A stretch of 64,000 nt of DNA from Kordia sp. (GTDB lineage Bacteria > Bacteroidota > Bacteroidia > Flavobacteriales > Flavobacteriaceae), in assembly GCF_050633145.1 (NCBI RefSeq), contig NZ_JBOEFY010000037.1, positions 7,648 through 71,647 on the forward strand, in the 5' to 3' direction. Within the stretch, counting starts at the first letter, position 1. The number at the start of each line of letters is the position of its first letter. Position numbers and translations under genes: made by a program. The notes under the pieces were generated by a model. The model had not been told where the DNA came from, made no database searches, and saw nothing but the letters and a program-made list of their open reading frames with translations. This document shows, in pieces, positions 2,264-4,688 of this stretch.

Positions 2264-2809
2264 ATGAAAAAAATAGTATTTGTATGCGCAATGGCATTAG
2301 CTATTGTAAGTTGTAAAAACAACACTACACCCGAAACAATATCAGTTGACACACAAACGAAAACTGTAAAAAAAGAAACTAGCAAATCAGATCTTGCTGC
2401 AAACTACAACAAAGCCGAATTAAAAATTGAAGGAATGAGTTGTGCAATGAGTTGTGCAAAGCGTATCGAAGGCAAATTAGCGGCCATGGAAGGTGTAAAA
2501 TCTGCTAAGGTAGATTTCGATCAGAAATTAGCAATGGTTGAATACAACGACGAGAAAGTTAATTTAGATGCATTGACAAACACCGTAACTAAAGTTGCTG
2601 GCGATTATAAAGTATCGGATATTAAAAACGTAGAAGCATTTTCTAAAAAATGTGGAGCAGATTGTAAAAAAGAATGCTGCACTAAAAAAGGCGAAACAAA
2701 AGAAGCTTGTAAAGCCGATTGCAAGAAAAAATGTTGTACAGAGAAAGATGCTAAAAAAGTAGCCTGTGCAGAAGATTGCAAAAAAGAATGCTGCGTTAAA
2801 AAAGCGTAA
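2264..2809 (+). CDS. Heavy-metal-associated (HMA) lipoprotein with Cys-rich C-terminal tail
   Basis: Lipobox AIVSC, LKIEGMSCAMSC metal motif, AKVDF HMA strand, three CxxxCKKxCC repeats. Confidence 0.85.
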   Translation: MKKIVFVCAMALAIVSCKNNTTPETISVDTQTKTVKKETSKSDLAANYNKAELKIEGMSCAMSCAKRIEGKLAAMEGVKSAKVDFDQKLAMVEYNDEKVNLDALTNTVTKVAGDYKVSDIKNVEAFSKKCGADCKKECCTKKGETKEACKADCKKKCCTEKDAKKVACAEDCKKECCVKKA

Positions 2810-2832
2810 ATACCACAAAACATATCACTTAC

Positions 2833-2862
2833 AAAAAGTCGTCACAATTGGCGACTTTTTTT
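2833..2862 (+). terminator. Intrinsic terminator
   Basis: aaaaagtcgtca-caat-tggcgactttttt. Confidence 0.75.
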
Positions 2863-2900
2863 GTGTTTTTACTTGAATATGATTCACTCCTAAACTACCT

Positions 2901-3296
2901 TTGCAACGTATTATTCTACACGTGAAAACTATTTGGGCACATATCTTTATTTTACTCTACGTAACTGCCATGTTACGCCCTGTAATGCCTTTAGCAAACT
3001 ATCTGATCAATCAAGATTATATTGCTGAATTTTTATGTATTAATAAAGATAAACCTGAGCTTGAATGTAATGGTAAATGTTATTTGGCAGAACAGTTAAA
3101 AAAAGCTTCCGAAGAAAAGGAAAAAAATCTACCTGCTATTGTCATGGAAGAATATCCTATCGGACTTGTATCTTTCATTTCGTTTCAAACTTCAACTAGT
3201 ACAAAAATAATTACACAAGCAAACTTTAGATACACCAATAACTATGCATTTGCGTATCTAAATTCGGTTTTTCATCCACCAACCTTTAATTCATAA
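2901..3296 (+). CDS. Conserved Bacteroidota membrane protein with CINKDKPELECNGKC motif and C-terminal FHPP; candidate regulatory uORF
   Basis: N-terminal hydrophobic helix, three Cys, ends SVFHPPTFNS, lies upstream of a metal-type outer-membrane transporter; TTG start uncertain. Confidence 0.7.
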   Translation: MQRIILHVKTIWAHIFILLYVTAMLRPVMPLANYLINQDYIAEFLCINKDKPELECNGKCYLAEQLKKASEEKEKNLPAIVMEEYPIGLVSFISFQTSTSTKIITQANFRYTNNYAFAYLNSVFHPPTFNS

Positions 3297-3321
3297 CATT
3301 AATACTTTTTTTAAACCTTAG

Positions 3322-3365
3322 CGTCACTTCGAGTGAAATTTCATAGAGATTTTGTATCGAGAAGT
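3322..3365 (+). repeat. CGTC-tagged REP-like palindromic element
   Basis: cgtcacttcgagtg...ttgtatcgagaagt, imperfect inverted repeat in intergenic space. Confidence 0.55.
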
Positions 3366-3600
3366 ACTTCACAGCTAGTATTCTAGCATTTTAGACACTT
3401 CTTTACAGCTGTGAGTCATTTCTTTGATTGACGAAACTTGGTATAAATTATTAATGTTTACATAGTACTTTTTCTGCTTTTTTAGATGGTTTCTAAACGA
3501 TCTGAAAGCACCTATTATGAATTAAAATCAAAACAATTTCGTTGCACATTTTAATACAAAGAATACTGTGTGCAACACTTTTACACCTAACAATACACAG

Positions 3601-4623
3601 ATGAAAAATATACTATCTGCTATCATATTCATAGCAGCAACATTCGCATACGCACAAGAAACGCAAGACACAACTACAAAATGGACTGGAAGCAGACCAG
3701 ACGGACACGCGCCAATCTCAGTAATGGGCGATCATACACACGGAAAAGGAGAAATTATGTTTAGTTATCGCTATATGTACATGAATATGGAAGACCTGAA
3801 TCGCGGAAGTGAAAACACAACTTTTGCCGACGCTTTATCAAACTATATGGTAACACCAACAAAAATGCCAATGCAAATGCACATGTTGGGCGCAATGTAC
3901 GCACCAAGCGACAAAGTAACTTTAATGGTCATGGCAAATTACCTAACAAGTGAAATGGATCATATAACTCGCATGGGCGGAATGTTTACTACGGAAGCTT
4001 CTGGTTTGGGAGATACTAAAGTCGCAGCTCTTTACAAGTTCTTCAACAAAGACAGACAGCAATTACACGCACAAATTGGAGTTTCATTGCCAACAGGAAG
4101 CATTGATGAGCAAGATGCAACACCAGCTTCTGAGCCAAACCAAGTGCTTCTTCCTTATCCAATGCAAATTGGTAGCGGAACGTTTGATGGTGAATTAGCC
4201 GTAACCTATTTAAAACAATGGAATAAATTTTCGTTTGGAACACAAGCAAGAACAACGCTTCGCTTCGGAAAAAACGACAATGACTATCGTTTAGGAAATC
4301 GCTACAGCTTGAACAATTGGGCAGCTTTTACAGCAACAAAATGGATCAGTTTTTCTGGAAGAGTTGAAATTGGTGCAATTGACAGAATTGAAGGTGCAAA
4401 TTCTGTGTTGAATCCTATGATGGTGATTACAGCTGATACACAAAACTCAGGAATGACCTATGCAAATGCAGGACTTGGCTTCAATTTATATGCCTTTAAA
4501 GGTTCGTTGAAAAATGTACGTTTCGGATTTGAAGCCTCGTTACCAATTTTTCAAAACATGAACGGAATTCAATTGCGCAACAAAGAAACTTTAACATTTG
4601 GATTGCAATATGCGTTCAAATAG
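3601..4623 (+). CDS. Outer-membrane beta-barrel transporter (MetA-phenol-pathway-like), Met/His-rich, probable metal uptake
   Basis: Signal peptide MKNILSAIIFIAATFAYAQ, GHAPISVMGDHTH, MPMQMHMLGAMY, C-terminal FGLQYAF beta-signal. Confidence 0.7.
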   Translation: MKNILSAIIFIAATFAYAQETQDTTTKWTGSRPDGHAPISVMGDHTHGKGEIMFSYRYMYMNMEDLNRGSENTTFADALSNYMVTPTKMPMQMHMLGAMYAPSDKVTLMVMANYLTSEMDHITRMGGMFTTEASGLGDTKVAALYKFFNKDRQQLHAQIGVSLPTGSIDEQDATPASEPNQVLLPYPMQIGSGTFDGELAVTYLKQWNKFSFGTQARTTLRFGKNDNDYRLGNRYSLNNWAAFTATKWISFSGRVEIGAIDRIEGANSVLNPMMVITADTQNSGMTYANAGLGFNLYAFKGSLKNVRFGFEASLPIFQNMNGIQLRNKETLTFGLQYAFK

Positions 4624-4643
4624 TATTCTCTAAGCTTCTTGAT

Positions 4644-4678
4644 AAAAGTCCTCAATCGATTATGATTGAGGGCTTTTT
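4644..4678. terminator. Bidirectional intrinsic terminator
   Basis: aaaagtcctcaatc-gattat-gattgagggcttttt between convergent genes. Confidence 0.8.
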
Positions 4679-4688
4679 ATTTATACGA

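Follow-up and report, generated by a model that had tools for sequence, protein, structure and literature searches.

The 64,000-nucleotide stretch of Kordia sp. DNA analyzed here (the window) contains a small open reading frame in front of the gene for a Met/His-rich outer-membrane barrel, and the question raised by this locus is whether the small gene is a leader whose translation controls its neighbor or encodes a membrane protein with a role of its own. A first-pass annotation had proposed the former, namely a metal-sensing arrest peptide and Bacteroidota analogue of the uORF CruR. Comparative tests of motif, genomic context, gene order (leader-TBDT-PepSY_TM) and promoter were favorable to this proposal, as a matter of analogy and not of homology, and we put the probability that the leader is a copper-sensing, ribosome-stalling, sequence-unrelated analogue of CruR/CutF at roughly 60%.

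Results

Anatomy of the leader gene

A small open reading frame with a hydrophobic N-terminus, three Cys residues and a C-terminal FHPP, followed by TFNS and the stop codon, was present at 2901-3296 as first described (Table 1). The length of 131 aa given to it is obtained by counting from TTG 2901; more likely the gene starts at GTG 2922 (MKTIW..., 124 aa), because this codon aligned with the MK... starts of homologues and TTG 2901 lies inside the perfect -7 box of the candidate promoter. The C-x10-C-x3-C spacing also had to be corrected, since the TGT codons at 3036, 3066 and 3078 give C-x9-C-x3-C. All three Cys are invariant in the family.

Table 1. Features of the leader-barrel locus (positions in the window; promoter and terminators were read from the sequence).
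Feature	Position	Strand	Evidence and remarks
HMA-domain (CopZ-like) lipoprotein gene, Cys-rich KKxCC tail, upstream neighbor	2264..2866	+	PF00403 E = 1e-11, CopZ models
Candidate Bacteroidetes sigma-A promoter	2873..2903	+	-33 TTG 2873-2875; -7 box TAccTTTG 2896-2903
Leader gene (124 aa from GTG)	2922..3296	+	N-terminal signal-anchor (predicted), Cys motif, linker, FHPP, 4 codons, TAA
Lys-2, then hydrophobic helical segment, residues 2-38	2925..3035	+	AF2 and alignment
C-x9-C-x3-C motif (LCxNKDKPxLxCNGKC)	3036..3080	+	Alignment; most conserved block, 3.1 bits/column
Linker, residues 85-116, fixed length, poorly conserved, predicted coil	3174..3269	+	Conservation profile and AF2
FHPP codons TTT CAT CCA CCA, proposed ribosome stall site	3270..3281	+	4 codons before stop; PP invariant
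Lineage-specific insertion with 48-nt dispersed repeat	3297..3460	+	Missing in Kordia loci L004 and L005
First conserved spacer hairpin, GCUUUUUUAGAUGG...GAUCUGAAAGC	3476..3509	+	Kept among Kordia loci; best hairpin in L004
Second spacer hairpin, GTTGCACA-N20-TGTGCAAC	3541..3576	+	Ends 24 nt before ATG
Outer-membrane beta-barrel gene, 340 aa, signal peptide MKNILSAIIFIAATFAYA/QE	3601..4623	+	PF13557 E = 7e-8
Intrinsic terminator, end of two-gene unit	4648..4684	+	CCTCAATC...GATTGAGG, then T-run

In the AF2 model the leader formed helices at residues 2-17, 19-29 and 31-38 (pLDDT 89-95), and the hydrophobicity of this N-terminus was kept across the homologue alignment. Lys-2 together with a conserved hydrophobic helix, modeled at pLDDT >89, corresponds to the N-terminal export signal that is a trait of CruR and CutF, and residues 2-38 were read as an uncleaved signal-anchor of probable N-in topology. 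Residues 18-56, which include the Cys motif, were strongly conserved; conservation of the N-terminal 56 residues goes beyond the need of a pure leader peptide, and the product may in addition be functional in its own right. The linker (~35 residues) showed 0.6-0.9 bits/column, residues 69-124 were modeled without secondary structure, and FHPP rose in isolation to 3.3 bits, followed by a tail of 0.7 bits.

Transcription unit and downstream barrel

In 65/80 related loci the first in-frame start of the small ORF was preceded by a perfect TAnnTTTG at a distance of 4-38 nt, in most cases 14-22 nt, against a background rate of 0.6 per kb. Such a -7 box fell within the spacer between leader and downstream gene in only 1/58 loci, and an internal promoter for the barrel gene was rejected for the window, the spacer of which contained one-mismatch sites only and no perfect TAnnTTTG. 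The best explanation of 2873-4684 is a single transcription unit of promoter, short 5' leader, 124-aa leader gene, spacer and barrel. The HMA-domain lipoprotein gene, which has its own terminator (2838-2866), reads as a transcription unit separate from it. Canonical terminators, which the spacer hairpins do not resemble, follow the HMA gene and the barrel. Genes for EF-P and Rho were both found in the Kordia sp. genome.

The transporter with GHAPISVMGDHTH and MPMQMHM reported earlier was confirmed; its gene starts at ATG 3601 (MKNILS..., a signal peptide), not at GTG 3568 of the ORF list. The PF13557 match scored 33 bits vs a cut-off of 22, and the AF2 model (pLDDT 83, pTM 0.80) resembled FapF and the COG4313 channel 4RL8 (Foldseek E 1e-13 to 1e-14, TM-scores 0.60-0.74), so that profile match and modeled 12-stranded fold place the protein in COG4313 / Phenol_MetA_deg. 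About 20 Met and 6 His residues were conserved in at least 80% of homologues, and according to the model the protein is a Met/His-lined 12-stranded outer-membrane channel.

A large leader family with an invariant Pro-Pro

The leader family comprised 305 close homologues and 6393 cluster representatives, with members in 142/401 Bacteroidota genomes and in 70/180 genera sampled across the phylum. Pfam and NCBIfam profile searches with the leader gave no family match, and full-text literature searches found no paper on the family or on HYC_CC_PP. It is a large, unnamed family in Bacteroidota with a design of the known CruR/CutF kind. Many of its database entries start at an internal Met and have lost the membrane segment; leader genes are thus often annotated with too late a start.

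Conservation of xHPP among homologues had been set out as a check of the proposal. Pro-Pro near the C-terminus was present in all 117 scorable close homologues (117/117) and in all complete divergent representatives (137/137), among which mean column identity was only 29%, and this conservation is far beyond chance. The residue preceding PP was most often H, followed in falling frequency by R, P, Q and K, and a minority of members carried xPPP. Since many members have R, Q, K or P in place of His and PP never changes, His is not an obligatory metal ligand, and a role as fourth ligand is unlikely. In complete members PP sits 1-4 residues before the stop, rarely up to 10. PP followed the last Cys at a distance of 65-67 residues in the 117 close homologues and of 63-72 residues in nearly all of the 137 divergent representatives.

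Genomic context

The expectation that homologues keep a downstream transporter was also borne out, with a transporter or other copper-linked gene following on the same strand in 108/108 evaluable loci. The leader came first in five copper-linked operon types, the next genes being a Met/His-rich barrel, a TBDT with PepSY_TM, MbnP/MbnH, a YtkA-like lipoprotein or, once, cytochrome bd. The 80 closest loci contained 58 barrels, 15 TBDTs (mostly with PepSY_TM), 5 sets of MbnP, MbnH and barrel, 1 cydAB and 1 truncated locus, and 29 phylum-wide loci contained 9 MbnP, 9 TBDT, 8 YtkA-like lipoproteins and 3 barrels; many of these loci come from related genera and the counts are not independent. Kordia relatives showed the order small1-barrel-small2-TBDT, with a leader copy of its own directly before each transporter. 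One constant first gene before unrelated products favors a regulator over a fixed physical partner. The metal is probably copper rather than Zn or Ni, with context as the sole basis of this assignment. The TBDT of the sister operons was considered as an OprC-like protein and this was dropped, its nearest solved relatives being generic (PqqU, YncD, FhuA); we make no claim on its substrate.

The intergenic spacer

The structured spacer of ~300 nt noted at first pass is real in the window, where 304 strongly structured nt (z = -5.7) separate the stop at 3296 from ATG 3601, but it is not a conserved part of a device. A lineage-specific insertion, missing in two Kordia relatives, accounts for about 165 nt of this length (3297 to ~3460), and the 48-nt element at 3322-3369 occurs in at least 43 copies in the Kordia sp. 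genome. Across loci the spacer ranged from 54 to 609 nt, with typical lengths of 66-113 nt. A conserved 300-nt riboregulator was rejected on these grounds, half of the sequence being insertion with repeat, and because an Rfam search of the spacer gave no match.

Among the spacers listed, all 44 of <=120 nt folded better than their own shuffles. The best hairpin of each of 49 related short spacers ended 20-89 nt upstream of the ATG (median 31 nt), the distance of spacer hairpins to the leader stop had a median of 20 nt (range 8-82), and the downstream start region was mostly unpaired (mean unpaired probability 0.61). A local stem over the start of the CutF type was not supported, given these hairpin positions and the unpaired start region. 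The hairpins were likewise not supported as classical intrinsic terminators, no U-run following them.

Discussion

Proposed mechanism

On the preferred reading of a copper-sensing stall, the leader would act mainly as a nascent chain, brought to the membrane by its signal-anchor. With the ribosome at Pro-Pro, the C-x9-C-x3-C motif would lie 66 residues upstream, a distance which would place it outside the ribosome tunnel and, if the topology is N-in, outside the translocon. Copper occupancy of the three Cys may then alter folding or pulling force, and with it the duration of the xPP pause, so that ribosome occupancy at the leader 3' end would set downstream expression. The likeliest coupling would be of the CruR kind, in which this occupancy gates Rho-dependent termination within the spacer; remodeling of spacer RNA is less likely. 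Rho-type polarity fits better since melting of a CutF-type stem over the start was unsupported. As the family stands at the head of genes for copper acquisition and copper sparing, the downstream gene is expected to be ON when copper is low.

Several observations speak against the stall. The motif is F-H-P-P and not the robust R-A/G-P-P, and EF-P normally resolves pauses at a plain xPP. At their distance from the stop the hairpins would escape melting by a stalled ribosome, and the spacer is variable in length and in the window tolerates the 165-nt insertion.

Alternative explanations

The leader product could instead be a stable periplasmic protein that is anchored in the membrane and binds copper, receiving Cu(I) on its three Cys from the adjacent uptake system as a chaperone or relay, with xPP as a structural or interaction motif and no regulatory role. 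Cys-rich membrane-tethered copper chaperones are well known, and the strong conservation of residues 18-56 with their invariant Cys motif, the confidence with which the N-terminal half was modeled and the co-transcription with copper genes would all suit such a protein. We nevertheless consider it unlikely, as an invariant PP near the stop, set in an unconserved coil tail of fixed length, is structurally hard to explain in this way. The partners, moreover, are not related to one another and differ in their compartment (outer-membrane barrel, TBDT, lipoproteins, inner-membrane cytochrome bd), and a shared chaperone would not need the separate copy that precedes each transporter in Kordia relatives. 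The same spread of contexts makes it highly improbable that the gene encodes an ordinary small membrane protein whose synteny reflects common descent in Bacteroidota with no functional link to copper. That many loci come from related genera, so that counts are not independent, is in its favor, but first-gene position before five unrelated copper-linked types across 70 of 180 genera sampled is a pattern beyond what common descent of one locus can generate.

A translational switch of the CutF type would retain the pause and change its consequence, in that a ribosome paused on FHPP would free a barrel start codon otherwise paired with the FH codons, the hairpins bringing the two ends together. 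UUUCAU is the reverse complement of AUGAAA, RNAfold closes the whole window spacer with a 10 bp helix and does the same in many related loci, and the pre-PP residues H, R, Q and P have codons beginning with C, which pairs with the G of AUG. Synonymous recoding of the leader 3' end, however, gave a mean z of -0.28, TTT made up 78% of Phe codons vs 74% in the background and CAT 73% of His codons vs 70%, and the helix, rich in AU, bridges 66-330 nt. Phe-His, Met-Lys and AT-rich codon usage are sufficient to account for the FH/start complementarity. Sequestering of the start codon by the UUUUCAUCC/GGAUGAAAA helix was accordingly rejected as a by-product of the amino-acid sequence, and a switch of this kind is improbable.

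Significance

If the copper-sensing stall is correct, thousands of "hypothetical proteins", in about a third of the sampled Bacteroidota genomes, are predicted regulators, and copper control in Bacteroidota would be largely post-transcriptional. The CruR/CutF design would have evolved more than once, and a plain xPP pause would suffice, which bears on the origin of arrest peptides. The family would also mark a candidate copper-uptake regulon of Met/His-lined COG4313-type barrels, TBDT with PepSY_TM, MbnPH and YtkA-like lipoproteins. Should the stall be wrong, the family is still a conserved three-Cys membrane protein tied to copper handling.

A wider proposal, offered tentatively, is that Bacteroidota may run copper homeostasis largely via nascent-chain sensors whose origin was independent of the proteobacterial DUF2946 family. 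The FHPP family would be a phylum-wide low-copper switch for five kinds of acquisition or sparing operon, sensing periplasmic copper across the membrane during its own synthesis by a bare xPP ~66 residues behind a three-Cys site; and, with DUF6660 and HYC_CC_PP, 'TM - Cys motif - PP - stop' would be a general convergent design for metal control. Six genes of this layout, from the FHPP family, DUF6660 and HYC_CC_PP, were found in the Kordia sp. genome.

Comparison with known systems

The arrest peptides with RAPP or RGPP (ApdA, ApdP, SecM-like; PMC7897499, PMC10951233, PMC12992588) are, like the leader, small secreted or membrane proteins with a near-stop Pro-Pro, encoded upstream of a regulated gene. 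The Arg-Ala/Gly core which makes their arrest robust and EF-P-resistant is absent from the leader family, and these peptides report on the Sec/YidC machinery instead of a metal. Small secreted proteins that carry PP-type motifs close to their C-termini and are encoded ahead of diverse genes form a recognized class (PMC12992588).

HYC_CC_PP (NCBIfam NF047658) and DUF6660 (Pfam PF20365) are named, uncharacterized small Bacteroidota proteins that share the overall design. In the Kordia sp. genome there are 3 genes for HYC_CC_PP and 2 for DUF6660. Each immediately precedes a gene for a CusA-like RND pump or a TonB-dependent receptor, and each product combines a hydrophobic segment at the N-terminus with Cys/His motifs and a PP close to the stop. 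DUF6660 ends ...QPPQV-stop and HYC_CC_PP has Y-x-PP 14-17 residues before the stop. Unlike the leader family, both have other Cys motifs and mostly precede efflux pumps. The HYC_CC_PP NCBIfam model gave no match to the window protein at E <= 1, the genome's three true members lying elsewhere, and hhalign of the leader family vs HYC_CC_PP gave a probability of 0.1% (thin alignment, 3 sequences). DUF6660 was absent from the Pfam matches of 106 leader-family members and appeared only as a language-model lead of 0.89.

CruR (Bp2923) of Bordetella pertussis, of the DUF2946/PF11162 family, is the leader of cruR-crtA(bfrG)-bp2921 (PMC9426467, PMC12914433), and the leader-TBDT-PepSY_TM operon type has the gene order of cruR-crtA-bp2921 (PMC9426467, PMC12914433). 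Both CruR and the leader are the small first gene of a copper operon (for CruR, of uptake) with an N-terminal export signal and an invariant Cys motif at fixed distance from a near-stop PP, which in CruR lies ~3 residues before the stop, and in both a long spacer precedes the next gene. CruR differs in its Cys motif, CxxC vs C-x9-C-x3-C, in its stall motif, RAPP vs F-[HRQKP]-P-P, and in the distance from Cys to PP, 45 +/- 2 (PMC9426467) vs ~66 residues; the 12-stranded Met/His-rich barrel that follows in the window is likewise unlike the CruR operon. The PF11162 (DUF2946) profile matched neither the window protein at E <= 1 nor any protein in a search of the whole Kordia sp. genome, and DUF2946 was not found in 106 leader-family members at E <= 10. 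Some Bacteroidota genomes carry both DUF2946-like genes and the leader family, and hhalign of the family vs five such genes gave a probability of 1% (thin alignment, 5 sequences). Homology of the leader to DUF2946, HYC_CC_PP or DUF6660 was thus not detected with these thin comparison alignments of 5 and 3 sequences.

CutF of Rhodobacter capsulatus is DUF2946-like (PMC9973294; bioRxiv 10.1101/2025.02.05.636593) and is a co-translationally exported nascent chain with periplasmic Cys; export of the leader is predicted. Its stall motif is a plain polyproline, PPP a few residues before the stop, which EF-P can relieve and which is not RAPP; the leader family has a plain xPP, with xPPP in a minority of members. 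Pausing of the ribosome on CutF governs the gene that follows it in a copper operon, as we propose for the leader. The CxxxC of CutF has the same spacing as the last pair of leader Cys (Cx3C) in a different sequence context, and the longer Cys-to-PP distance of the leader family would suit sensing beyond the membrane, as proposed for CutF. CutF turns a detoxifying oxidase ON at high copper via a melted stem-loop over the Shine-Dalgarno, whereas the genes downstream of the leader family look like uptake genes, Bacteroidota are without Shine-Dalgarno pairing (PMC9976891), and the spacer hairpins leave both the proposed stall site and the start codon free. Common to CruR, CutF and the leader family is a design of export signal, Cys motif, C-proximal PP and metal-gene operon (PMC9426467, PMC9973294, bioRxiv 10.1101/2025.02.05.636593).

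Locus layout and transcription unit

The first-pass annotation described the locus accurately overall, but not in its details. Its C-x10-C-x3-C motif is in fact spaced C-x9-C-x3-C, and the TTG at 2901 at which an ORF lister began the leader falls within a perfect -7 promoter box of the Bacteroidetes type. GTG 2922 is likely the true start, because the resulting MKTIW... lines up with the homologues, which start MK...; the barrel gene starts at its ATG and not at GTG 3568. In most relatives (L002-L081; in the window at 2922) the leader start codon is TTG or GTG rather than ATG, TTG-AAA being read as Met-Lys, which may perhaps point to deliberately weak initiation.

A perfect TAnnTTTG box precedes the first in-frame start of the leader in 65 of the 80 related loci, mostly by 14-22 nt; one was found in only 1/58 leader-barrel spacers and none in the window spacer. 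From this distribution leader and barrel are very probably co-transcribed from the promoter ahead of the leader, on a transcript whose 5' UTR is very short. A separate transcription unit just upstream encodes an HMA (CopZ-like) lipoprotein with a Lys/Cys-rich tail of repeated C-K-K-x-C-C units; an HMA gene at that position was seen only in Kordia and a few other genera.

Features of the window and of related loci (L022-L068, related loci; L090-L132, other loci of the same Kordia genome)
Feature	Position	Strand	Remarks
HMA-domain lipoprotein gene	2264-2809	+	PF00403 and CopZ model matches
Terminator of HMA gene	2838-2866	+	hairpin and T-run; from sequence
TTG accompanying the -7 box	2873-2875		before leader
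-7 box, TAccTTTG	2896-2903		before leader
Leader gene, 124 aa	2922-3296	+	likely GTG start
Leader Cys codons, TGT	3036, 3066, 3078		C-x9-C-x3-C
Insertion, ~165 nt	3297 to ~3460		within spacer
Repeat element, 48 nt	3322-3369		within insertion
Spacer stem-loop	3541-3576		GTTGCACA-N20-TGTGCAAC; conserved-type hairpin
Outer-membrane protein (barrel) gene, 340 aa	3601-4623	+	ATG start, signal peptide
Terminator after barrel gene	4648-4684	+	canonical; from sequence
Leader family member, cydA, cydB	L068:4953-8109		one Spongiimicrobium genome
~139-aa lipoprotein gene	L022:9187-9606, L036:9164-9583, L040:9249-9665, L068:8160-8600, others		
Distant leader paralogue	L026:9506-9805, L032:9496-9822	-	
HYC_CC_PP/DUF6660 small ORFs	L090:1486-1899, L091:1498-1911(-), L092:1465-1893, L131:1432-1812, L132:1501-1824		

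The leader family and its Pro-Pro end

The leader protein matched nothing in Pfam or NCBIfam, even at E = 1, and its nearest ESM Atlas clusters are labelled "hypothetical protein". A word-indexed search returned 305 homologues, a profile search returned 6393 of 1.84 billion cluster representatives at E <= 1e-3 (2019 at E <= 1e-10), and a whole-genome search of 401 evenly sampled Bacteroidota genomes placed the family in 142 of them (70/180 genera). No Pfam family was matched by more than four of 106 divergent members. Many database entries start at an internal Met (108 aa), with loss of the hydrophobic N-terminus. A distant paralogue (32-34% identity, ...ALCENTDKPELKCEGKC...) in two related loci is encoded on the opposite strand, immediately ahead of a further TonB-dependent receptor, so that the family has diverged sub-branches within one genome.

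Three Cys, one Gly and two Pro occupy the invariant columns of the 106 divergent sequences, whose column identity averages 29%. Conservation reaches 2.6 bits per column in the segment after the membrane helix and 3.1 in the Cys block, is 0.6-0.9 in the linker (residues 85-116), and is 3.3 at FHPP and 0.7 in the last four residues. Nearly all complete members have the Pro-Pro 1-4 residues before the stop; it lies 65-67 residues from the last Cys in close homologues (63-72 in nearly all distant ones). The xHPP ending was kept in homologues in that the Pro-Pro is invariant and the preceding residue is most often H, followed in falling order by R, P, Q and K; one position further upstream, F or L predominates. 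As many members carry R, Q, K or P in its place, the His is not essential as a metal ligand. The AlphaFold2 model built with the family alignment (pLDDT 83) has helices at 2-17, 19-29, 31-38 and 52-68, and no secondary structure in residues 69-124. The invariant Pro-Pro thus stands isolated after a stretch that is variable in sequence, fixed in length, without predicted structure and about as long as the ribosomal exit tunnel; judged from alignment and model, this is the anatomy of a candidate stall site behind a spacer stretch, unlike the edge of a folded domain.

Downstream genes

The analysis covered 80 loci closest to the window, each taken from a species-representative genome, and 29 phylum-wide loci. 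The expected downstream transporter was mostly retained in the closest set, where the Met/His-rich barrel directly follows the leader in 58 loci and a TonB-dependent transporter (TBDT), in most cases together with a PepSY_TM protein and a ~139-aa lipoprotein, in 15; MbnP, a di-haem MbnH-like peroxidase and a related barrel follow in five, cytochrome bd (cydAB) in one, and one contig is truncated. Phylum-wide, the leader precedes MbnP (9), TBDTs (9), YtkA-like-domain lipoproteins (8) or barrels (3). Kordia relatives have the order small1-barrel-small2-TBDT, with a separate leader copy directly before each transporter; the genome studied here has only the first pair. MbnP/MbnH and YtkA (CtaK) we take to be copper-binding or copper-delivery proteins, and cytochrome bd is a copper-free terminal oxidase.

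The ~139-aa lipoprotein (conserved ...TQMxxVMAxHDExMPKM..., no Pfam match) ends many leader-TBDT-PepSY_TM operons. In the single cydAB case it likewise follows, there with ~140 aa.

The barrel protein matches PF13557, and its AlphaFold2 model (pLDDT 83, pTM 0.80) is a barrel similar to 12-stranded FapF and to 4RL8, a COG4313 channel. Among 57 homologues, about 20 Met and 6 His recur in 80% or more; these include the alternating Met of the first strands (YMYMNM, MPMxMHM) and an N-terminal GHAPIxxMGDHxH segment. Sites rich in Met and His typify Cu(I) handling, and the barrel is a candidate copper channel.

The leader-barrel spacer

The ~300-nt structured spacer noted at first pass is indeed strongly folded (304 nt, z = -5.7), but as a conserved device it was ruled out. 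The insertion is absent from Kordia loci L004 and L005, and the 48-nt element within it is a dispersed intergenic repeat (at least 43 copies in the Kordia genome, 74-96% identity) that looks like a REP/MITE-type element; spacer lengths are typically 66-113 nt (range 54-609 nt), and an Rfam search found nothing. A stem-loop is nevertheless kept in nearly every spacer (49/49 short spacers, -5 to -17 kcal/mol), folding better than shuffles in 44/44 spacers of up to 120 nt among the values listed (median z -1.6). The median distance from the stop to its start is 20 nt, and that from its end to the ATG is 31 nt; it is not followed by a U-run. Six Kordia loci share the arms of the window hairpin, GTTGCACA/TGTGCAAC, with no covariation, and differ in its loop; this hairpin could equally be a protein-binding palindrome.

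A CutF-type mechanism was not supported, because the stem-loop lies beyond the reach of a ribosome paused at the stall site, which could not melt it, and leaves the start codon uncovered. RNAfold structures frequently have the FH codons (UUUCAU) paired to AUGAAA of the next gene, but a synonymous-recoding test gave no sign of selection for this pairing (mean z -0.28; TTT and CAT usage at background). As the spacer varies in length and tolerates an insertion, Rho-dependent polarity, shown for CruR and proposed here by analogy, would fit better as the coupling than any short-range RNA switch. Genes for Rho and EF-P are present in this Kordia genome.

Interpretation and comparison with known systems

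We favor, with a probability of roughly 0.6, a copper-responsive ribosome-pausing leader gene, analogous to CruR/CutF but unrelated to them in sequence, that would control a candidate copper channel. The main rival, a rather improbable one in our estimate, takes the leader with its membrane helix and invariant Cys for a stable membrane-tethered copper-binding protein of no regulatory role. The same first gene stands before copper-linked genes whose products are unrelated and belong to different compartments, which speaks for a regulator more than for a fixed partner; still, the two readings are compatible with each other.

Membership of the leader in the DUF2946 family (CruR/CutF) was rejected: no PF11162 match was found in the leader protein, the 106 divergent members or the whole Kordia genome, and the profile-profile probability against true Bacteroidota DUF2946-like genes was 1%. 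The latter (RAPP/RGPP, CxxC) occur in 7/301 Bacteroidota genomes, and some genomes have both families. Three HYC_CC_PP genes (NF047658) and two DUF6660 genes (PF20365) of the same Kordia genome, unrelated in sequence, share the general layout of hydrophobic N-terminus, Cys/His motif and PP near the stop, giving six such genes with the leader; each of the five immediately precedes a CusA-like RND pump or a TonB-dependent receptor. CruR and CutF are built like the leader: each heads a copper operon, carries an export signal and has a Cys motif at a set distance from a Pro-Pro near the C-terminus. The leader-TBDT-PepSY_TM operons have the gene order of Bordetella cruR-crtA-bp2921 (PMC9426467, PMC12914433). 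The plain xPP of the leader is nearer to the EF-P-sensitive PPP of CutF than to the robust RAPP/RGPP core (PMC10951233, PMC12992588).
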